64,000 nucleotides of DNA from a virus (IMGVR_UViG_3300042259_000159), one strand, 5' to 3'. Shown: positions 5,018 to 46,941, numbered from the stretch's first letter. A program made the numbers and translations. The notes: generated from the sequence alone by a model not told the origin.

Positions 5018-5119
5018 TAGTGCCCAAGAACTACATACCTGTTTGGACGGGTTGGGGAGGGCAAGCCCTACTTGTAGATAAAGCGTGAAACGCTTTGTTT
5101 CTAAAACCTATATTTTCTA

Positions 5120-5148
5120 TTGACAAAAGTGTTCGGTCTTGATAGGTT
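5120..5148 (+). promoter_or_regulatory. sigma70-like promoter (TTGACA-N17-TAGGTT) sharing an extended motif with the promoter at 11068
   Basis: ctattgacaaaag...gttgtatttaac; the same extended motif recurs at 11063-11104. Confidence 0.5.
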
Positions 5149-5188
5149 GTATTTAACGAAACAACATAAACAAACAAAAGGTTCAGAC

Positions 5189-5599
5189 ATGCGTAAAACT
5201 CTTTTTATTATTCGGGGTGCTTCCGGTTCCGGTAAAAGCACTCTTGCTGATGAGATTGATAACATTTTGCAGGTTTGGGAAGCAGATATGTATTTTACAG
5301 ATGCCATTACTCAGGAATATAACTTCATCCCTAAACTCCTCCCGCTGGCTCATAAGTGGTGTCAAAATCAGATCCGTAAGTGTATGGAGCGCGGTGACAA
5401 GAGAATTGCTGTGGCAAATACCTTTACAAAAAACTGGGAAATGAAACCATATCTTGACATGTGTGAAGATTTTGGTTACACTCCTTTCGTAATTCGCTGT
5501 GAGAATGCTTTTGACAATATCCACGATGTACCTGAAGATGTTGTCAAGAAACAACGCGAACGTTTTGAAGATTATGGAGTAACTAAAGATGTCTCGTAG
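5189..5599 (+). CDS. P-loop nucleotide/polynucleotide kinase-like protein
   Basis: Walker A GASGSGKST; architecture resembles the kinase domain of T4 Pnk (recall only). Confidence 0.55.
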   Translation: MRKTLFIIRGASGSGKSTLADEIDNILQVWEADMYFTDAITQEYNFIPKLLPLAHKWCQNQIRKCMERGDKRIAVANTFTKNWEMKPYLDMCEDFGYTPFVIRCENAFDNIHDVPEDVVKKQRERFEDYGVTKDVS

Positions 5600-5819
5600 G
5601 GTATACACAAAAACTATCAAGACAGAAAAGGAAGTCGCATTTACCGAATTAACATGTGACGAGTGTGGCAGAAAAGAAGAAACAAGCGCAGACGAATTGT
5701 TCGGATGGGATGCTATGACGTATGGTGGTAAGGTATACGATATATGCCCCTCGTGTGCTGAGGCTTTGGCTACTATTGTACAATCTATGAAAATAGAAAA
5801 GCAAGAAAATCTATACTAA
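5589..5819 (+). CDS. zinc-ribbon protein
   Basis: CDECG...CPSC cysteine pairs. Confidence 0.45.
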   Translation: MSRRVYTKTIKTEKEVAFTELTCDECGRKEETSADELFGWDAMTYGGKVYDICPSCAEALATIVQSMKIEKQENLY

Positions 5820-33953: not shown

Positions 33954-34037
33954 TGGTAGGAGAAGAGAGATTCGAACTCTCAAGGAATAATCCGTCGAGG
34001 CTTAAACTCGATGTGTTTACCATTTCACCATTCTCCC
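33954..34037 (-). tRNA. tRNA-Leu (anticodon UAA), type II, CCA encoded
   Basis: Manual fold: acceptor GGGAGAA/TTCTCCT, anticodon loop TTTAAGC, long variable arm, T-loop TTCGAAT. Confidence 0.65.
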
Positions 34038-34045
34038 GTATTTTT

Positions 34046-34067
34046 TATCTACCATTCCGCCATTCCC
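34046..34067 (-). other. orphan tRNA 5' fragment (Leu-like acceptor + D-arm)
   Basis: GCGGGAATGGCGGAATGGTAGA with no matching 3' half. Confidence 0.4.
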
Positions 34068-34076
34068 GCATTTATT

Positions 34077-34153
34077 TGGTACCCACTGTGAGATTCGAAC
34101 CCACACTAATCAGTTTCTAAGACTGATGCCTCTGCCAAGTTGGGCTATACCAG
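34077..34153 (-). tRNA. tRNA-like gene (class I, anticodon UAG) with mismatched acceptor stem; probably chimeric or disrupted
   Basis: D-arm, anticodon arm TCAGT-CTTAGAA-ACTGA and T-arm fold, but 5' ACTGGTA does not pair with 3' AGTGGGT. Confidence 0.4.
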
Positions 34154-34184
34154 TATTATGCTTATTATTTTATTTTGAAAGGCC

Positions 34185-34235
34185 ATATGTATACACATAT
34201 ATATATATACATATATATATGTATAGAGCAACCAA
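34185..34235. repeat. TA-rich microsatellite
   Basis: atatgtatacacatatatatatatacatatatatatgtatag. Confidence 0.8.
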
Positions 34236-34412
34236 AATGGTTAAATAAAAAGGTGTTTTGTGGAGACACCAAACTCCTCCAGTTTTAGTGATCTGGAAAC
34301 AATAAGCGGCGCAGGTGCTCTTTAAAACACGTGCTACCAAGCGTATAAATTGTCTAGGGGATTTCACCAAACACATTATGTTATTGGAGGGATCTTTCCC
34401 TAGACTCAGTAA

Positions 34413-34485
34413 AGCTCCTGACAGGACTTGAACCCGCAACCGGCTGATTACAAATCAGCTGCTCTGCCAGTTGAGCTACAGGAGC
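34413..34485 (-). tRNA. tRNA-Thr (anticodon UGU), CCA not encoded
   Basis: Manual fold: acceptor GCTCCTG/CAGGAGC, D-arm GCTC..GAGC, anticodon loop TTTGTAA. Confidence 0.7.
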
Positions 34486-34489
34486 AGAA

Positions 34490-34561
34490 CAGAGGGAGAA
34501 GGATTCGAACCTTCGAATGACGGGACCAAAACCCGTTGCCTTACCGCTTGGCTACCCCTCT
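34490..34561 (-). tRNA. tRNA-Gln (anticodon UUG), CCA not encoded
   Basis: Manual fold: acceptor AGAGGGG/TCCCTCT, anticodon stem ACGGG/CCCGT, loop TTTTGGT. Confidence 0.65.
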
Positions 34562-34569
34562 AAATTTTT

Positions 34570-34646
34570 TGGCTCCGGCGGCAGGATTTGAACCTACATT
34601 CGCAATGGTTAACAGCCATTTGCCTTACCAATTCGGCGACACCGGA
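34570..34646 (-). tRNA. tRNA-Asn (anticodon GUU), CCA encoded
   Basis: Manual fold: acceptor TCCGGTG/CGCCGGA, anticodon stem AATGG/CCATT, loop CTGTTAA. Confidence 0.65.
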
Positions 34647-34691
34647 ATGAACTTTTTATTTGTTATCAGCATTGTTTTGCTTTATTTTAAA

Positions 34692-34770
34692 TGGTCTCGG
34701 TGATTAGATTTGAACTAATGATTATTCCTGCTCCCAAAGCAGGTGCCATACCAAGCTAGGCGACACCGAG
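34692..34770 (-). tRNA. tRNA-Pro (anticodon UGG), CCA encoded
   Basis: Manual fold: acceptor CTCGGTG/CACCGAG perfect, anticodon stem CCTGC/GCAGG, loop TTTGGGA. Confidence 0.6.
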
Positions 34771-35251
34771 ATCAGGTGTGGTACCAAACTCCACTATGGG
34801 CAGAGGTTATAAGAAGGTCCGTACATGATATAGACAGATATTCTTCCATAACAGCGGTACGGACGCTGTCTCATTTTTATATCTTTCAGTGTGCTATTAC
34901 GCCAAAGGGAAATTAAGCCTTACCAGTTACGGGGTGCCCTTTTACTATCCACAAAGAATTTCAAATCGCGTGCATTCTAAGTATCGGAAAATTCTACAAC
35001 CACTTAAAGTACACCTCGTTTAAGAGATAGCGACCTGTGCTTCGTCCCACTCTTTAAAGGATGGCTGCCTCAAAGCCCACCTCCTGAAAAATGCATGAAG
35101 GATTATCCCTCCTTCGCTAAATACAACCTATCAATTTTAAGGGTTCTTGTCAAGAACATTTTAAGGTTTTTGAAATTTTTGTTGAACGCTGATTTGCTAC
35201 GCGGGTACAGCGTTCGAAACCTCGATAGCATCCTTGCCGTTGGCAAAGCTG

Positions 35252-35393
35252 TCAGGAGCCGCAGGAGGAGAATTGAACTCCTCTGGCATCAACACGCAGT
35301 CACCACAACTACATCTACCGTTACGGGTATGGCTCCCCATCCTAGTCACCTGTTGATACCTTATAGGTTCAGCCCTACCAAGGGCACTGCGGC
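35252..35393 (-). ncRNA. tRNA-like structured RNA (~142 nt) with 7-bp acceptor-like stem and T-arm; possible intron-containing or disrupted tRNA
   Basis: GCCGCAG ... GAGGAGTTCAATTCTCCTC CTGCGGC; body too long for a standard tRNA. Confidence 0.3.
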
Positions 35394-35399
35394 TTAAGT

Positions 35400-35620
35400 G
35401 GGTTGGTTGGTGCAGATTGTGAACGTACCCCCGCCTATAGAGGCGGAAGCTTCCTGCTTCAGCGAGAACAGCACCAGTAACTCCGAAGAGTTGTGGCGAA
35501 TTACACTCTCTCCACAGGCGTAAATTCCCGTGCGACCCACGGTACTTTATGAGTTACGCTAGGCAGATATTCGCCCAGCTTCTTCTCTAATATTTATTGC
35601 AGCGTTCTTGTCACGGTTAT
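35400..35620 (-). ncRNA. putative TnpB guide (omega) RNA region overlapping the tnpB 3' end and right end
   Basis: Position relative to tnpB; subterminal hairpin CCGCC-tataga-GGCGG at 35431-35446; no direct RNA evidence. Confidence 0.35.
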
Positions 35621-36795
35621 GATGACTGCCACACTTAAGGCAATCCCATTCCCGCACAGACAAGTCTTTGGTATCCTTGTTCTGGTAGCCACAGACATGG
35701 CATAGCTGACTGCTTGGATACCATTTGTCTATCTTGATAAGTTGCTTACCCTGCCATGCAAGTTTGTATTTCAGCATACTTGTGAACATGCTCCAGCCGT
35801 TGTCGGATATGGATTTACCAAAGTTGAACTTGCCACCCTTCTTTCGCTTCGCCATGTCCTTTACGCTAATGTCCTCTATGCCAATCACATCATAGCGGTC
35901 TGCAAGATAACGAGCTTTCTTATGCAGGAAGTCGCGGCGTTGATTAGCAATTTTCTCATGGAGTACAGCCAAACGTAGTCTTTGTTTATTCCTATTACGG
36001 CTCCCTTTTTGTCTCTTGGAGAGTTTTCTTTGTGCCTTGATCAATCTCTTTTCGGCTTCCCGTAAGAAATTTGGATAATCGGCGTTGTCCTCATCGGAAG
36101 CAACATACATCCCGTGCATAGCAAAATCCAATCCAAGAAAATTCTTCGGTATGATGGGAAGTATTTGGTTTTCATACTCCACCAAAATACTAATATAGTA
36201 TTTTCCTGACGGTGTTTTACTTATGGTTACAGTCTTTATGGTGCTATTCTCCATCAATGGACGATGCAGACACAGCTTTACCCAACCTATTTTCGGCAGC
36301 TTGACTTTGTTTCCCTCGATTCTTACAGAGCCATGTTGGTTGTTCGTAGAATATGAAGCATGACCCGCTTTCTTCGACTTGAAGCGTGGCTTGCAAAAAT
36401 GCTTCCTATTGCTCCAAAAGTTGTTATACGCCTTGTTCAGGTTTATTTGGGCATTGGCGAGAGCAAGGCTGTCAACCTCTTTCAGCCAAGGAAACTCTTT
36501 CTTGTACTGTGCAGGTGTGTTGTTCAGCCTCTCTCCTGTTTCCTTATAGTGATCAAGACGATCTCCAAGCATCTTGTTATAGATGAATCTGGCACTGCCG
36601 AAAGTCTTGGCAAACATAATCTTCTGTTCAATTGTCGGGTAGAGTCTATATCGGTATGCCTTATTCACTATAATCACCTGCCTTGATTTTCTATGTATTT
36701 ACGAATTGTCTCAAACGGAGCAATTATCTGGCTCAACTACTTACGTAAATTCGCTAGACACACCTTCATCCCCCACCTTAGAGGTGGAGGGCTTC
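35425..36795 (-). mobile_element. IS200/IS605-family element, TnpB-only (IS1341-like)
   Basis: tnpB ORF flanked by similar subterminal hairpins at 36773-36787 and 35431-35446; no tnpA seen. Confidence 0.7.
35559..36677 (-). CDS. tnpB: TnpB (IS200/IS605 OrfB, RuvC-like RNA-guided nuclease)
   Basis: N-terminal YRYRLYPT; C-terminal zinc finger CHVCG...CLKCG; 372 aa. Confidence 0.85.
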   Translation of the reverse strand: MIIVNKAYRYRLYPTIEQKIMFAKTFGSARFIYNKMLGDRLDHYKETGERLNNTPAQYKKEFPWLKEVDSLALANAQINLNKAYNNFWSNRKHFCKPRFKSKKAGHASYSTNNQHGSVRIEGNKVKLPKIGWVKLCLHRPLMENSTIKTVTISKTPSGKYYISILVEYENQILPIIPKNFLGLDFAMHGMYVASDEDNADYPNFLREAEKRLIKAQRKLSKRQKGSRNRNKQRLRLAVLHEKIANQRRDFLHKKARYLADRYDVIGIEDISVKDMAKRKKGGKFNFGKSISDNGWSMFTSMLKYKLAWQGKQLIKIDKWYPSSQLCHVCGYQNKDTKDLSVREWDCLKCGSHHNRDKNAAINIREEAGRISA

Positions 36796-36799
36796 TGGC

Positions 36800-36843
36800 G
36801 GGTTAGGTTAAATCCCTTGTGTCTACTAATTCCACCAATCGGG
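36800..36843 (-). other. partial tRNA-Leu-like 5' fragment next to the IS left end
   Basis: GCCCGATTGGTGGAATTAGTAGACAC duplicates the 5' end of tRNA-Leu at 36940 but lacks a foldable remainder. Confidence 0.4.
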
Positions 36844-36853
36844 CTAAAATCTT

Positions 36854-36940
36854 TGGTGCCCAATGCAGGACTCGAACCTGCACGCCATTTCAGGCAGGAG
36901 GGCTTAAACCTCGTGTGTCTACCAATTCCACCAATCGGGC
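36854..36940 (-). tRNA. tRNA-Leu (anticodon UAA), type II, CCA encoded
   Basis: Manual fold: acceptor GCCCGAT/ATTGGGC, anticodon loop TTTAAGC, long variable arm. Confidence 0.6.
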
Positions 36941-36949
36941 TAAAATCTT

Positions 36950-37033
36950 TGGTGCCTCAGACAGGATTCGAACCTGCACGGATCTCTCCACTTGGTCCTA
37001 AGCCAAGCGTGTCTGCCATTCCACCACTGAGGC
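36950..37033 (-). tRNA. tRNA-Leu (anticodon UAG), type II, CCA encoded
   Basis: Manual fold: acceptor GCCTCAG/CTGAGGC perfect, anticodon stem CTTGG/CCAAG, loop CTTAGGA. Confidence 0.65.
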
Positions 37034-41438: not shown

Positions 41439-41922
41439 AGATAACTGCCCTGTACACAGGAAACTGTGTATGTGTATCTCATTAAAACGGGGAACCCTAA
41501 GTGTACACGCATAAGGGAATCCCGTGACTACGCAAGCCGAAAAAGGAGTAGGCATGAAAAATTTAGGATTTATGGGTTTTGATAAGTGTGCGGATATGTT
41601 CTGACCTAGAGAAGGGTTTTTCATGCTCTTCTACTGTAAGGAGGAATAAGGTTGGAACAAGCACGGTACATAGGATCTATAGAAGAAAAACGCATACTTC
41701 CATATCTAAGAATTTTTCTTGGGAGTAGTTGTAACGACTAGTTCATAAGAACGTAAGACACAAGTAGTCCTTAAGTGCAAGGACAAGGTGTTTGAAACAT
41801 GAGACACTCTAACAAGTAATGTTGAGGGTGAAGAGATAGTCTGAACTGTATAGAAATATACAGCAGGAGAACATTTTAATGTTTTTCCGGCAGATGCCTT
41901 ACGAACATCTGTGAACATTTTG
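41439..41922 (+). other. group I intron 1 in terL (no ORF)
   Basis: R-like gtaacgactagtt at 41731 and S-like gaagagatagtctgaact at 41830; ends in G; boundaries +/-3 nt. Confidence 0.6.
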
Positions 41923-42199
41923 GGTGCCGCAGGTTCGGGAAAGTCATACATAATGAATATGATACCTTTGAGGTATGTCGATTGCCCCAACTTTAGGGGG
42001 ATTGTCTTCCGAAGGGAAACGACACAGCTTACAGGTGAAGGGGGGATGTGGGATACAGCAACGGAGATATACTCTGAGCTGCCTAAAAATATCAGGCCCA
42101 AAATATTGAAACATAACCTGAGAATGATTTTTCCGAATGGGGCAAAAATTAAGTTTTCACACATGGAAAATGATAATGATTTCAGGAAACATCAAGGGT
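41923..42199 (+). CDS. terL: terminase large subunit, exon 2 (Walker A)
   Basis: GAAGSGKSY ... FSHMENDNDFRKHQG. Confidence 0.65.
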
Positions 42200-42453
42200 T
42201 AATTAGTAGCCCCTTGTGTTGGTGACAGCGCAAGCAAACTAACCTAATTCGGTGGAAGCCCAAACATGTAGGATGTGGGTGATACCGAGCAAGCCACGGC
42301 GTGTGTAACGACTAGTTCTTAGGAACGTAGGCCCAAGCGGGTCGAAACGGTTAGCATCTTATTAAGATGAAGATATAGTCTACTCTGCATGGAAACATGC
42401 AGCGGACACTTTATGTGTCGGGCAGATGTTAGCGCCATCTGTTGAATATTATG
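42200..42453 (+). other. group I intron 2 in terL
   Basis: R gtgtgtaacgactagttcttagg at 42301; S gaagatatagtctactctgcatggaaacatgcag at 42369. Confidence 0.6.
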
Positions 42454-42562
42454 TACAATATACCCTGATATGCTTTGATGAGGCAACACATTTCACTTTC
42501 CAACAAGTTGAATACTTAATGTCACGTATGAGAAGTAAAAGTAAGTATGCTTCTCGTATGGT
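42454..42562 (+). CDS. terL: terminase large subunit, exon 3 (Walker B)
   Basis: QYTLICFDEATHFTFQQVEYLMSRMRSKSKYASRM. Confidence 0.6.
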
Positions 42563-42846
42563 TCTGTCGTGGATTACGCGACATGTATGGCGAAAGCTGT
42601 ACTGGCAACTGTGTGAACTCAGGGAAACCTTAGCTGCTGCAATTGGGCAGAGGAAGAAGGCAATCCTGAGCGAAGCCTTCCCACCGGGAAGGAACGTGCA
42701 ACGACCATCGAAAGCGTAACACCTGTTACAGTGAGTAGAGTACACCACACATGTGTGGTGGAAGCGCACAGCCCCTAACATGTAACGATGAGGGTGAAGA
42801 TATGGTCTGAACCTACAGAAATGTAGAAAAAGGTAAACAAATACAG
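42563..42846 (+). other. group I intron 3 in terL
   Basis: Shared 48-bp motif caatcctgagcgaagccttcccaccgggaaggaacgtgcaacgaccatc; S-like gaagatatggtctgaacc at 42796. Confidence 0.55.
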
Positions 42847-43162
42847 GATAATCGGTAACCCAGATCCTGATAGTTGGCTTTTGCCTATGGTAGAGTGGTA
42901 CTTAGATGAACAAGGATACCCCGACCAGTCTAAAGATGGGGTTGTAAGATGGTTCATTAGAAAGAATGGTGAGTTTATCTGGAGGGATACAGAAGAAGAA
43001 ATCTATAGAGATTTTGGAACAGGCCCGTCTATACGCCCTGTATCCTTTACATTCATCTCTGCAAATATCTATGATAACCCTATTATGATAGAGACCAATC
43101 CAGACTATCTTGCAATGCTTGAAGGCCTCAACGAGGTTGATAAGGCAAGATTACTACGCGGT
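42847..43162 (+). CDS. terL: terminase large subunit, exon 4
   Basis: IIGNPDPDSWLLPMVEWYLDEQGYPD...; the NP motif is only in frame once intron 3 is removed. Confidence 0.6.
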
Positions 43163-43444
43163 TAACAGTGGCCGCATATAGTAGTGATATTATATGAAAA
43201 ATTGTGTGAATTCAGGGGACACCTAAACAGGCAACGCTTTGTGCTGTAGGCAATCCTGAGCGAAGCCTTCCCACCGGGAAGGAACGTGCAACGACCATCC
43301 TGAGTAGGAGTAGGGCCAAGCGGTTCCGAAGCGCACAACATCTCATTGAGATGATGATATGGTCTGATCTATATGGAAACATATAGCTGACACGGTGTAT
43401 ATTACGTGTCGGGCACGTCTTAGCGAGACGTGCTGAACAAAATG
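43163..43444 (+). other. group I intron 4 in terL
   Basis: Same 48-bp motif at 43250; S-like gatgatatggtctgatctatatggaaacatatag at 43371; 3' end ...ctgaacaaaatg. Confidence 0.55.
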
Positions 43445-44167
43445 AACTGGTATGCTAGACCACAGGATAGTGGATACTTTAAAAGAGATTGGCTGCAACG
43501 TTGTGTTGAGGCACCTACTGATACAAAGTGGGTACGTGCTTGGGATAAAGCAGCTACAGAGCCGAGTGACACAAACCCCTCTCCTGACTATACAGCTTGT
43601 ATAAAGATGGGGAAAGATAGAGCAGGAAACTACTACATTGCTGGCGATTTTGTGGAAGAAAACTATGATGAAGACAGCAAGACATATGGCAGGTTCAGGA
43701 AAAGAGCAGGTGCAAGAGATAATATCATCTTGAAACAGGCACTTGCTGATGGCCATGATTGTGAGGTTGTTCTTCCTCAAGACCCCGCTGCTGCGGGTAA
43801 GACGGAATACATTGAATCAGCAAAGAAATTAATAGAGCAAGGTATCCGTTGCAGAAAGGATGTGGTTGCATCTAACAAATCTAAGCTAATAAAGTTTTCA
43901 CCGTTTTCTGCATCATGCGAGAATGGGCTTGTTTACATCTTGGATGCAACATTTACCCAAAAAACATTGAATGCATTTTATACAGAGCTTGAATCTTTCA
44001 ACGGAGAAGCAAGCACAAGAACACGAAAGGATGATTGGGTTGACTGCACAGCAATGGCATTCAACTACCTATCTAAAAAAAGTGTACTTCCCAATTTTAC
44101 ACTAGATGAGTGGGGAGGTACATCGGTAAAAACACCCCTCTCAATTGTGAGGGCCAACTTTCATTAA
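43445..44167 (+). CDS. terL: terminase large subunit, exon 5 (nuclease domain)
   Basis: WVRAWDKAAT...DYTACIKMGKDRAGNYYIAGDFV; the five exons total 1500 nt (500 codons). Confidence 0.65.
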   Translation, partial: NWYARPQDSGYFKRDWLQRCVEAPTDTKWVRAWDKAATEPSDTNPSPDYTACIKMGKDRAGNYYIAGDFVEENYDEDSKTYGRFRKRAGARDNIILKQALADGHDCEVVLPQDPAAAGKTEYIESAKKLIEQGIRCRKDVVASNKSKLIKFSPFSASCENGLVYILDATFTQKTLNAFYTELESFNGEASTRTRKDDWVDCTAMAFNYLSKKSVLPNFTLDEWGGTSVKTPLSIVRANFH

Positions 44168-44178
44168 GGAGGGCACTG

Positions 44179-44885
44179 GTGGTAAAAGAGGGCAGCAAGT
44201 CTGCTACAAAAACAACCACTTCTAAGAAATTCAACCTATCTGAAAAAGGGTATATAGGACTTAATCAGGTAAATGGCCGCATTTATGAGGAAAGTCGTGA
44301 TGCTTTAAGGTTCCCTAATGCGACAAAGACCTTTAAAAAGATGTCCTATGACCCTGTAATATCCGCTGCAAATTCCACAATAGATCTTATGATAGGTCGT
44401 GTGCAGTGGTTCTTCGATGTTCCTGATACAGCCAGTGATAAGGCAAAAGAAGCAGCAGAATTTTTAAATTACTGTATGAACAGCATGGATATGGGAACAT
44501 GGGAAGATTTCATTACTGAGTGTGGTAGCTATAGACGTTACGGCTTTCACATAGCGGAAAAAGTCTACAACAAGGTTAAAGAAGGGAAGTGGAAGGGAAA
44601 GTATAAGTGGAAAAAACTACCAACAAGAGCACAAGACACCATTGAAGAGTGGGTCTTTAGTAAGGATAACAGGGAGCTTTTAGGCTTAAAACAGTCAACA
44701 AGAAATGTGACACACCCACTGGCATTAAAGAGCCTTACAGGCTATATAGAAATACCAAGGTCAAAATTCATACATTTTGCCTACGATGGGTATAGAGATA
44801 ACCCAGAGGGAAGAAGCCCGTTAGTTGGTGCCTACATCCCTTGGACATATAAAACACTCATAGAGGAATATGAGGCTGTCGGCGT
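44179..44885 (+). CDS. portal protein, exon 1
   Basis: GTG start 6 nt after AAGGAGG; portal-sized product after splicing. Confidence 0.55.
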
Positions 44886-45826
44886 TAATTATAGCGCCTT
44901 TATGTATTGATACATAAAGCAAACTCCCTTAATTCAGGGGAAGCCCTAACGTTGAGACGAGGGTAATCCTGAGCGAAGCCTTCCCAACGGGAAGGAACGT
45001 GCAACGACTAATAAGTCAAATAAACAACACATTAGTGTATGGAGAGTATTTTATGAAAACTTCAAAAGAAATTAGGAACCTTGTCATTGCTATGCTGTTT
45101 GGAGACGGCACATTGAATGCTAAAGGTTATTTGAGCATGCGTCACTGCATAGCGCAAAAAGACTATATAGATTGGAAACGAAAACTTCTAGTAAGTGGTA
45201 TATCTATGACTGACTGTTATTATGTTAGTAATAACGGGTATGGTGCATATGAAGTTAGAAGTAGAGTTTACAAATTTATGAAGCAATATCGTAAGGTAAT
45301 TTATGGTAGTGGTAGAAAAAACATTACAGACCGTAGAATCCTGAATAAGCTCACGCCGCTTGGTTTATCCATATGGTATATGGATGATGGCGGGTTATCT
45401 CAGAAGAAAAACAAGGATGGTGAAGTAGTAGCAAACGAGCTGATACTTAACACATATCTTAGTAGAGAAGACAACCAGAAGATTATTGATTACTTCAATG
45501 AAGTTTGGGGTATAAGATTTACTCAGGTAAAGAATAGAGGTCTTTATCGTCTCCGTTGCGGTACAGCGGAGGCTAGGAAATTTATAGAAATCGTAAAGCC
45601 ATATGTCTCCCAAGTACCGAGTATGGCACACAAAATGAAGTTAAAAGTAAAATAGTCTGACTATCGAACACACGTAATTTTTACGGAAGTTAGTAGAGTA
45701 GAACCAAGTGGTTCGAAACGGGGAGGTTCTTAGAAATAAGAACATGATATAGTCTGGTCTGCATGGAGACATGCAGGAGTTCATAAGAGAACCGGAGAAG
45801 ATTAACGACCTTTTCTGAACACAACG
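44886..45826 (+). other. group I intron in portal gene carrying a LAGLIDADG homing endonuclease ORF
   Basis: 48-bp shared motif at 44960; S element gatatagtctggtctgcatggagacatgcagg at 45746; 3' end ...ctgaacacaacg. Confidence 0.6.
44999..45655 (+). CDS. LAGLIDADG homing endonuclease (intron-encoded)
   Basis: LVIAMLFGDGTL and LSIWYMDDGG motifs; probable start at ATG 45053. Confidence 0.7.
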   Translation: MQRLISQINNTLVYGEYFMKTSKEIRNLVIAMLFGDGTLNAKGYLSMRHCIAQKDYIDWKRKLLVSGISMTDCYYVSNNGYGAYEVRSRVYKFMKQYRKVIYGSGRKNITDRRILNKLTPLGLSIWYMDDGGLSQKKNKDGEVVANELILNTYLSREDNQKIIDYFNEVWGIRFTQVKNRGLYRLRCGTAEARKFIEIVKPYVSQVPSMAHKMKLKVK

Positions 45827-46070
45827 AGCTAAAGACCTTGGGGGTATTCCTCTTATAGGTGTGGATGTTGATTACCTTGCTAAAGCACAGGAGAACCCTG
45901 CATCAGCAGAAGCCGCTGTTGTAGAGGCACTGAAGCGTGATGCAGCAAATATGCATTCAGGTGATCAATCCTACATGCTCCTTCCTCTTGCTTACACACA
46001 GGATGGGGGGAAACCACTCTTTGATTTTAAACTTGTTGGAGTGGACGGTGGTTTGCAAATAAGCCACGGT
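45827..46070 (+). CDS. portal protein, exon 2
   Basis: In-frame continuation (V)AKDLGGIPLIGVDVDYLAKAQ...ISHG. Confidence 0.5.
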
Positions 46071-46401
46071 AGATGGAAACATCTATAAAAATAAACCTAT
46101 CTAATTGCTGGGAAGTCTTGTTAGGCTTAATGTACAATACAGAGTGGTGACACTCTGCGATACTGTAAAAATCATTAAGATAGAGATAATCAGCAGCCAA
46201 GCTTAAGCCTCCAGACAGATAAAGGAGGAGGCTTTTGAAGGTTCAACGACTAGTTCTTAGGAACGTAGGCCCAAGCGGGTCCAAACGGTAGGGTTCCTCC
46301 AGTGCGGCTGAGGAATAAGATATAGTCTAGTCTGTATGGAGACATACAGGTGCAGGTAAAGCTGCCGGAAAGGTCTAGCGAGCCTTTTTGAATACTAAAC
46401 G
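46071..46401 (+). other. group I intron 2 in portal gene (no ORF)
   Basis: R ggttcaacgactagttcttaggaacg at 46241; S gaataagatatagtctagtctgtatggagacatacagg at 46313. Confidence 0.6.
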
Positions 46402-46941
46402 GGAAAGCAATATAATACTGATGATATTATAAAAAGAAAGCAGAATGAAATATTAATCTTGTATCTTGCTGATGTTTTAAAGCTTGGTACAGATACGCAC
46501 GGCAGTTTTGCGCTTGCTGATAGCAAGAATGCTTTACTCGGCTTTGCTATTGACCGCCATTTGAAGTTTATAGCTCAAACATTAAAAAGAGATTTGGTTG
46601 TACAAACCCTGAACATAAATGGTTTCGATCTCGATAAAAGCGAAATTCCCACTCTCCAACACACAGAGCTTGACAGTGTAGATATAGATGTCTTTTCTAA
46701 GTTTATCCAGCGTGTTGCTGCTGTTGGATACCTGCCGCGAACACCGGAGCTTATCAACGAGGTTCTCAAGAAGGGGGACTTCAAATATCGTATAGATGAA
46801 GAGATGAGTAACGAGGAGTTTGATAAACTCTTTCCTGAGGCTGTTTCAAGATCGGGTGATGGGATGAAGAGTGCAGGAGAAGGAACGTCAAACAAGGTGG
46901 GTGGTGCAGATAACAGTACGTCAAACAAGGAGAACGCTTAA
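46402..46941 (+). CDS. portal protein, exon 3
   Basis: Open frame from the intron 3' G; three exons total 1491 nt (497 codons). Confidence 0.55.
   Translation, partial: GKQYNTDDIIKRKQNEILILYLADVLKLGTDTHGSFALADSKNALLGFAIDRHLKFIAQTLKRDLVVQTLNINGFDLDKSEIPTLQHTELDSVDIDVFSKFIQRVAAVGYLPRTPELINEVLKKGDFKYRIDEEMSNEEFDKLFPEAVSRSGDGMKSAGEGTSNKVGGADNSTSNKENA

Follow-up and report, generated by a model that had tools for sequence, protein, structure and literature searches.

A putative LAGLIDADG homing endonuclease gene in the core of a group I intron that interrupts a phage portal gene

The introns of the T4 genes td, nrdB and sunY belong to subgroup IA2, contain the helices P7.1 and P7.2, and carry an internal open reading frame (ORF) with its own translation signals. 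They home by double-strand-break repair. Their ORFs sit in peripheral loops (P6a, P9.1), and the enzymes that they encode (I-TevI, I-TevII and I-TevIII) are of the GIY-YIG or HNH type and not LAGLIDADG proteins. LAGLIDADG homing endonucleases cleave a target of 18 to 22 bp site specifically and leave 4-nucleotide (nt) 3' overhangs. I-SceI, from the omega intron of the yeast mitochondrial 21S rRNA, and I-WcaI are monomeric enzymes of this kind, with two LAGLIDADG motifs, that are encoded inside a group I intron. Here, we analyzed a stretch of viral DNA of 64,000 nt (IMGVR_UViG_3300042259_000159), referred to below as the window, in which a gene for a predicted enzyme of the I-SceI type lies within a group I intron (positions 44886 to 45826) of the portal gene.

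The enzymes usually found in phage introns are GIY-YIG, HNH, PD-(D/E)xK and EDxHD proteins (2014 review, PMC3984707), and the introns themselves occur mostly in DNA-metabolism genes (PMC3984707, PMC11878797). Cases of a LAGLIDADG_2 ORF within a phage group I intron are already documented but rare. Jug jumbo phages, whose terL is split by group I introns, contain 17 LAGLIDADG versus 505 HNH enzymes (PMC12880540), the Bastillevirinae contain 1 LAGLIDADG ORF, and one LAGLIDADG_2 ORF was described in a Nitunavirus DNA-polymerase intron (PMC11878797). The latter belongs to the same PHROG (phrog_11023) and Pfam family as the window enzyme, as does gp17 of Salmonella phage PVP-SE1. This protein is only 31% identical to the window enzyme, its gene follows the DNA polymerase gene, and it may be free-standing. 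None of the phrog_11023 examples compared has been reported in a portal gene.

Against this background, the window intron resembles the T4 introns in its P7.1/P7.2 pair and in having, within it, an endonuclease ORF that carries translation signals of its own; we propose the same route of homing for it. It differs from the I-SceI and I-WcaI systems in sequence (18 to 20% identity), in enzyme length (200 amino acids [aa] versus 235 aa) and in its host, which is a phage structural gene and not an organellar rRNA gene. Genes split by several group I introns, of which some have endonuclease ORFs, include Twort orf142, TerL and Pol of the Bastillevirinae, and terL and nrdD of Jug jumbo phages; unlike in those cases, the host gene here is the portal gene, and a single enzyme clade occupies a fixed ribozyme position across many host genes. 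The reading that we favor, and consider reasonably probable, is that an active homing enzyme is encoded in a self-splicing portal intron and that both form a modular, mobile element. The locus adds an exact empty site, a fixed ORF position in the core across a large clade and clear cassette shuffling to the described cases, and it serves as a clean case, delimited in full, of a mobile group I intron with a LAGLIDADG gene in a structural gene of a phage.

The intron-encoded protein

The original prediction, generated from the sequence alone, had described an ORF at 44999-45655 with two LAGLIDADG motifs and had proposed a profile search against the LAGLIDADG families. This search recovered the family over its whole length: the ORF covers positions 3 to 168 of the 168 in PF03161 (LAGLIDADG_2; E = 2e-26, 93 bits, cut-off 25) and matches phrog_11023, annotated as 'homing endonuclease with LAGLIDADG motif' (E = 1e-25). 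Both motifs are present, LVIAMLFGDG with D18 and LSIWYMDDGG with D111/D112, and the residues G17-D18-G19 and D111-D112-G113 are invariant in an alignment of 62 homologues of the family. An AlphaFold (AF2) model built on 62 homologues had a predicted local distance difference test score (pLDDT) of 95.3 and a predicted template modeling score (pTM) of 0.90. It consists of two alpha-beta-beta-alpha-beta-beta-alpha halves, with the secondary-structure order H-E-H-E-E-H / H-E-E-H-E-E-H (H, helix; E, strand). The LAGLIDADG fold on which the prediction depended was also recovered by Foldseek, whose top matches in the PDB were I-WcaI (6x1j) and I-SceI (template modeling scores of 0.72 to 0.78, E about 1e-10), with other LAGLIDADG enzymes and maturases lower in the list. 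Moreover, a phmmer search of the PDB sequences found I-SceI (E = 1.6e-4) and aligned WYMDDGG of the window enzyme with WFMDDGG. Profile matches and the predicted structure thus confirm the ORF at 45053-45655 as a full-length, intact, double-motif LAGLIDADG_2 enzyme of the I-SceI type.

Translation probably starts at ATG 45053 and not at GTG 44999, because a Shine-Dalgarno sequence (GGAG) lies at 45041-45044 and because the homologues, of 196 to 205 aa, begin with MKxxKE at the same methionine. GTG 44999 falls within the ribozyme core. We excluded an in-frame fusion of the ORF to portal exon 1, since the two are read in different frames and that of the exon meets a stop at 44908-44910. No sigma-70-like promoter was found within the intron, and the sole terminator-like match there was the P1 hairpin.

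At least 200 homologues were found, nearly all in unannotated metagenome assemblies. The clade is almost absent from IMG/VR, and its members came from Logan and ENA assemblies; the best matches among GenBank phages were from crAss-like phages (40% identity), besides PVP-SE1 gp17. Compared with the closest copy (L010, 97% identical), the window gene has 27 synonymous and 6 nonsynonymous differences, with a synonymous divergence (dS) of 0.26 and a ratio of nonsynonymous to synonymous divergence (dN/dS) of 0.05, which points to strong purifying selection on the endonuclease. The 51 nt scored as leader in this comparison (45002-45052, made up of the final 9 nt of the R element and the 42 nt after it) are identical at 51 of 51 positions despite the dS of 0.26 in the ORF, so the leader must be under constraint as well. 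These data bear on the possibility that the ORF is a decaying, inactive homing endonuclease, a remnant from late in the homing cycle. The enzyme seems misplaced relative to the terminase site of its relatives, and the five other introns in the window have no ORF, as such decay would predict; but the frame is full length, the confidently modeled protein (pLDDT of 95) keeps both of its motifs and its catalytic residues intact, dN/dS is 0.05 over 33 differences, and the Shine-Dalgarno sequence is conserved along with the leader. We regard decay as highly improbable.

The intron, its ribozyme and the empty portal site

Comparison of the window with three phages of about 98% nucleotide identity (L005 to L007) defined the insertion site. 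Exactly 941 nt (44886-45826) are missing from the portal genes of these phages, which encode an identical portal protein. The empty site reads GAGGCTGTTGGTGT^GGCCAAAGACC (the caret marks the insertion point throughout), and the occupied allele reads GAGGCTGTCGGCGT^AGCTAAAGACC. Over a longer span, the intron-less allele of L006 is ATATGAGGCTGTTGGTGTGGCCAAAGACCTTGGG, and the ligated exons of the window give ...GCTGTCGGCGTAGCTAAAGACC.... Two other IMG/VR contigs, L008 (100% identical to the window) and L009 (99.9%), contain the intron. Since phages this similar differ in whether they have the intron as a whole, the element shows clear signs, at the level of sequence comparison, of being modular and recently mobile. 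These natural intron-plus and intron-minus alleles are ready substrates for cleavage and homing assays.

The identity of the interrupted gene was established from the spliced product. Joining 44110-44885, 45827-46052 and 46402-46941 gives a protein of 513 aa, and its residues 2 to 471 align in one piece, at about 40% identity, with annotated portals of Felixounavirus-like and Pseudomonas phages. In a tblastn search with the phiK7A1 portal, 44227-44886 was covered in exon 1. Across the junction, the ligated exons encode ...EEYEAVGV^AKDLGG..., with no gap in the alignment to intron-less portals. The intron is therefore the first portal intron, as originally predicted, and its predicted boundaries proved exact: position 10 of the Rfam model, the 5' splice-site U, maps to 44885, the 941-nt absence has the same limits, and the intron similarity between the window and L010 stops exactly at G45826, the last intron base. 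The features of the locus are listed in Table 1.

Table 1. Features of the interrupted portal gene, in window coordinates
Feature	Position	Strand	Content or basis
Portal exon 1	44110-44885	+	GTG 44110 is the first start candidate (uncertain); ends with splice-site U 44885
Group I intron carrying the endonuclease gene	44886-45826	+	941 nt; probably IA-like, with P7.1/P7.2; Rfam, exact absence in L005-L007, in-frame exon ligation
Ribozyme 5' half	44886-45010	+	P1 (internal guide GCGCC, 44894-44898), P2, P3 5' strand, P4, P5, P6/P6a, R element
R element, TGCAACGACTA	45000-45010	+	Closes the ribozyme 5' half; P7 5' strand GACUA at 45006-45010
Untranslated endonuclease leader	45011-45052	+	Hairpin ACAC-AUUA-GUGU; Shine-Dalgarno sequence; read from sequence
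Predicted LAGLIDADG_2 homing endonuclease gene	45053-45655	+	200 aa; Pfam, PHROG, AF2, Foldseek, phmmer, family alignment
ORF cassette tail	45656-45663	+	Ends in a second GACTA copy (45659-45663)
Ribozyme 3' half	45664-45826	+	J7/7.1 UCGAA, P7.1, P7.2, P3' strand, P8, S element, P9, P9.x, terminal G45826
Portal exon 2	45827-46052	+	Translation; joined directly to exon 1 in L005-L007
Second portal intron, ORF-less in the window	46053-46401	+	Rfam, 93 bits at 46043-46349; 3' boundary placed by frame and homology
Portal exon 3	46402-46941	+	phiK7A1 portal tblastn covers 46405-46926; spliced protein

Rfam RF00028 (Intron_gpI) scored 51.5 bits at 44876-45191 (gathering score, 50), and a 3' fragment of 21 bits at 45744-45774 covers P9; the score is lowered because the ORF splits the model. 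With the cassette (45011-45663) deleted, the intron is collinear with 3 ORF-deleted relatives and 16 ORF-less phage introns. RNAalifold, applied to this ORF-deleted intron and the 19 relatives, recovered P3, P4, P5, P6, P7.2, P8 and P9, with compensatory changes in 33 of 46 pairs. P7 is a pseudoknot outside the RNAalifold model; its pairing, between the 5' strand in the R element and UAGUC in the S element (45750-45754), was read from the sequence, as were the helices of the 3' half (P7.1, CGUAA/UUACG; P7.2, GAACC/GGUUC; P8, GUUCUUA/UAAGAAC; P9, CUGCAUG/CAUGCAG). P1 consists of GGCGU-UA / UA-GCGCC, with the splice-site wobble U44885-G44894, and P2 has 9 bp. A P9.2-like helix (GAGAAG/CUUUUC) has undergone compensatory replacement, by GAGUG/CACUC in L010, UAGUG/CACUA in L011 and GUGAG/CUCAC in L001. 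The ribozyme core is thus intact, and the intron would be expected to self-splice. We infer an IA-like subgroup because the P7.1/P7.2 pair sits between P7 and P3'. No P10 pairing could be identified by eye for either allele.

Copies of GACTA at both ends bound the cassette by a 5-nt direct repeat, and the complement of GACUA, UAGUC, occurs at 45653-45657 and overlaps the stop codon. A candidate pairing of the Shine-Dalgarno region with the P3 5' strand, which Rfam misaligned as P3', has 4 to 5 bp only.

The exons next to the intron were also compared. Between the window and L005 to L007, there are 19 differences over 1002 nt, all synonymous, of which 4 lie at positions -6, -3, +1 and +4; the probability of at least 4 falling within those 11 nt by chance is about 3e-5. 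The C at -3 pairs with a G of the P1 guide. This cluster is compatible with co-conversion from a diverged donor, with optimization of P1 or with an immune target.

Position, exchange and possible targets of the endonuclease cassette

We examined the genomic contexts of 12 distinct homologues of about 55 to 97% identity to the window enzyme. In all 12, the ORF starts directly 3' of the R element (CAACGAC(T/C)A), and it mostly ends in (G)ACTA, followed by TCGAAA. Five of these relatives interrupt a terminase gene at the same site, ..I^YDNP.. (L010, L141, L142, L004 and L011; 97, 81, 75, 74 and 70% identity, respectively). The others include L001 (72%) in a thymidylate synthase gene, L149 (62%) in nrdD, and L146 and L148 (both about 55%) in genes without a Pfam match. 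The ORF splits a 16-mer of the core, TGCAACGACTA^TCGAA, whose joined flanks give TGCAACGACTATCGAA. An exact scan of IMG/VR returned this 16-mer at at least 120 loci and at least 123 sites, at least 111 of them in obvious ORF-less group I introns; the ORF therefore interrupts a core that is normally contiguous, 3' of the P7 5' strand. In the window intron, the fused core is GGAAGGAACGTGCAACGACTATCGAACACACGTAA / GGAACGTGCAACGACTATCGAACACACG, and the consensus is ...TCGAAAGCACATC / ...TCGAAAGCAC. The arrangement that the original prediction had called classic holds for a double-motif enzyme inside a group I intron but not for the place of its ORF, which lies directly 3' of the R element and in no peripheral loop.

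Two further loci were noted. The terminase-associated intron of L003 (5269-6615) contains tandem ORFs for an HNH_3 protein (225 aa) and a LAGLIDADG_2 protein (204 aa, 74% identical to the window enzyme), the latter at the usual position 3' of the R element. In the crAss-like phage cr131_1 (L151, 60354-61082), a homologue of 40% identity lies between hypothetical ORFs of 13 kb and 4.2 kb, as if an intervening sequence with an endonuclease gene had split one giant gene. A scan of IMG/VR with the leader pattern returned, beyond this phage, chance matches only, without an endonuclease.

ORF and ribozyme do not share the same relatives. The ORFs of the window and L010 are 95% identical at the nucleotide level; in contrast, the ribozyme 5' halves are 60% identical, and P6, P3' and P8 are unrelated. 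Conversely, the 5' half of L010 is 89% identical to that of L142, and the ORFs of these two are 74% identical. This mismatch indicates that the cassette (45011-45663) was recently swapped between ribozyme backbones that sit in different genes and in phages only distantly related to each other. On the 5' side, the similarity between the window and L010 breaks off exactly at TGCAACGACTA. Just upstream, 44956-45008 matches intron 3 of the window terminase gene (42653-42705) at 49 of 53 positions and intron 4 at 45 of 47. Given this identity to resident introns, the portal intron has the appearance of a mosaic, in which an incoming cassette joined a 5' core of the resident type.

Within the terminase gene, a 52-nt block (P4'-P6-J6/7-P7) is 100% identical between introns 3 and 4 (42658-42709 and 43248-43299). 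The portal intron copy (44956-45008) is 92 to 96% identical, and the rest of the introns is diverged, which suggests gene conversion of this block between introns within the genome.

An ORF at this unusual place, a core junction next to P7, could also belong to a protein that acts mainly as a maturase and aids intron folding, with DNA cleavage secondary or lost. LAGLIDADG maturases are known, one of them bacterial, in a Thermotoga 23S intron (PMC3984707). Foldseek also finds the bI3 maturase and the bifunctional I-AniI, more weakly than I-WcaI and I-SceI (E of 3e-6 to 9e-6), and a function in folding would fit the strong constraint on the leader, which is unchanged despite the dS of 0.26. Pure maturases, however, typically lose the metal-binding Asp of the LAGLIDADG motifs, and the Asp that closes each motif is invariant in the 62 homologues here. 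In addition, intron presence and absence together with cassette exchange indicate ongoing mobility at the DNA level, and the ribozyme core lacks no part and shows no protein-specific feature. We consider a mainly maturase role improbable.

We return to the homing enzyme in a self-splicing intron. The 200-aa protein would be translated from its own Shine-Dalgarno sequence and ATG as an active, monomeric endonuclease of the I-SceI type. The intron would splice itself out of the portal mRNA, after U44885 and with G45826 as its terminal base, to give an intact portal protein. In a mixed infection, the enzyme would introduce a double-strand break into cognate DNA that lacks the element, and repair from the element-bearing genome would copy the element into it. 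In this scheme, cleavage and splicing are inferred, as is above all the DNA sequence that would be cut. Candidates for this target are the portal junction without the intron, GCTGTTGGTGT^GGCCAAAGACC, and the core of ORF-less introns, and we take classical homing into the intron-less portal allele as the default.

Several findings weigh against this scheme. The nearest relatives of the enzyme (97, 81, 75, 74 and 70% identity) all occupy one terminase site and not the portal site. The portal junction matches that terminase site, or the intron core that flanks the ORF, at 7 to 8 of 20 positions (shuffle P of 0.5 to 0.9), so that the enzyme may not be adapted to the portal site. An ORF in the core junction could impair self-splicing, and intron ORFs otherwise prefer peripheral loops (PMC3984707). 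A search of the JGI metagenomes for an ORF-less twin of the intron, with the pattern TTAATTATAGCGCC N{85,112} GTGCAACGACTATCGAA, gave 0 matches, and the 5' junction pattern was found in IMG/VR in this phage only, with no other portal-site copy. Of the comparison with intron-less phages that the original prediction had proposed for finding the homing site, the insertion site stands; the portal junction is no more than a candidate target of the enzyme, because the nearest relative (97%) sits in a terminase intron.

The terminase site itself is empty in the window. At ..ANI^YDNP.. (43050-43085), the sequence is TCTGCAAATATC^TATGATAACCC (TCTGCAAATATCTATGATAACCC), and it differs from the occupied site of L141 by two synonymous changes next to the insertion point (AAT ATC versus AAC ATT). 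The terminase junction, GTGCAAACAT^TTATGATAAC, matches the fused intron core, GTGCAACGAC^TATCGAAA, at 12 of 20 positions (shuffle P of 0.005 to 0.04), which is suggestive only; the P values for junction similarity fail a strict multiple-test correction. For I-TevII, Loizos et al. (1994) described that the intron sequence flanking the ORF resembles the exon junction, as summarized in PMC3984707. The relatives at the terminase site weakly recall this case.

These similarities bear on a second explanation, which we hold to be possible though clearly less likely than homing into the portal allele: the cassette would be autonomous and home on intron-core DNA, invading ORF-less introns with ...GTGCAACGACTA^TCGAA... 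in any host gene. The portal intron would then have received its cassette from the terminase-intron lineage, and the enzyme would not drive the presence or absence of the intron. The ORF position is fixed at 12 of 12 loci (55 to 97% identity; terL, td, nrdD and others), although vertical descent of one ORF-bearing lineage predicts this equally well. The joined flanks rebuild the 16-mer that at least 111 ORF-less IMG/VR introns contain uninterrupted, but its invariance arises by construction, the set having been retrieved with the exact pattern. An enzyme of 97% identity at two unrelated exon sites, the incongruent similarities of ORF and ribozyme, and the break of the window-L010 similarity exactly at TGCAACGACTA all fit such homing; ordinary homologous recombination through the conserved flanks could also swap the cassette. 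The resemblance of the terminase junction to the fused core (12/20), as in the I-TevII case (PMC3984707), points the same way, subject to the failed correction for multiple tests. Speaking against intron-core homing, the enzyme gene is found alongside ORF-less introns whose sites are nearly intact: GTGCAACGACCATCGAA in terminase intron 3 of the window, where the C reflects P7 covariation with GAUAUGGUC, and likewise in L148.

If the cassette did home in this way, the LAGLIDADG clade of at least 200 metagenomic members might be a parasite of introns and not of genes, with the nearly invariant R element/J7/7.1 DNA of IA-type phage introns as its site, a proposal that we put forward only tentatively. 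A single enzyme would then be able to enter any intron without an ORF, whatever the gene or phage, and the 97%-identical portal and terminase copies would be two products of intron-to-intron homing. The fixed position next to P7 and the swap of a 95%-identical cassette make the locus a good system for the Loizos-Belfort model, in which endonuclease genes invade via intron sequence. The compact, monomeric 200-aa enzyme, with its many natural variants, could also serve as a meganuclease scaffold.

We considered whether the genome avoids the 16-mer in its other introns to escape its own enzyme and rejected this idea: terminase introns 3 and 4 have a C in place of the T, and this variant of P7 is compensated (GACCA/UGGUC). 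The endonuclease-free L006 also departs from the 16-mer at the same position (GGCCA, with the same C).

Neighboring introns and other features of the window

Rfam Intron_gpI gave six matches between 41.7 and 46.4 kb, five at or above the gathering score and one of 39 bits. Besides the portal intron described above, those above the gathering score lie at 42190-42402, 42559-42828, 43153-43386 and 46043-46349; the subthreshold match is at 41706-41863. The terminase large-subunit gene, upstream of the portal gene, is also split by introns, and its exons were validated with phiK7A1 TerL. As originally predicted, the five other introns of the window contain no ORF; all of them are short. The accompanying suggestion that they had lost their endonucleases finds direct support in one of them. 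In L005 to L007, an insert of 723 nt replaces 36 nt of the window (46202-46237) in the second portal intron. The insert (5029-5751 in L006, with an ORF at 5065-5748) codes for an HNH endonuclease of 227 aa (phrog_59, E = 2e-40). One such intron does carry an endonuclease in relatives, then, and loss and gain are not distinguished by this comparison. Given these differences, the two phage variants bear different endonuclease-carrying introns in one gene.

The first intervening sequence of the terminase gene (41716-41863) is about 148 nt long and scores 39 bits, and P4-P6 are apparently missing from its Rfam alignment. With it taken out, the reading frame is nevertheless restored (...PYLRI^SGEHFNVFPADALRTS...), and the sequence may represent a group I intron that is minimal or defective.

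Compared with L006 and L007, the window has an insertion of 107 nt (41570-41676), with a TAGGAT direct repeat at its ends, soon after the ATG (41554) of the terminase gene, within its first codons. The original terminase frame is cut short there (MKNLGFMGFDKCADMF*). Translation could instead begin at a TTG (41652) that the insertion supplies together with a new Shine-Dalgarno sequence, AAGGAGG (41638-41644); the N terminus would then change from MKNLGSIEE.. to MEQARYIGSIEE.... It may be a small mobile insertion.

Eight tRNA genes (four for Leu and one each for Thr, Gln, Asn and Pro) lie at 33954-37033 on the minus strand, opposite to the structural module.

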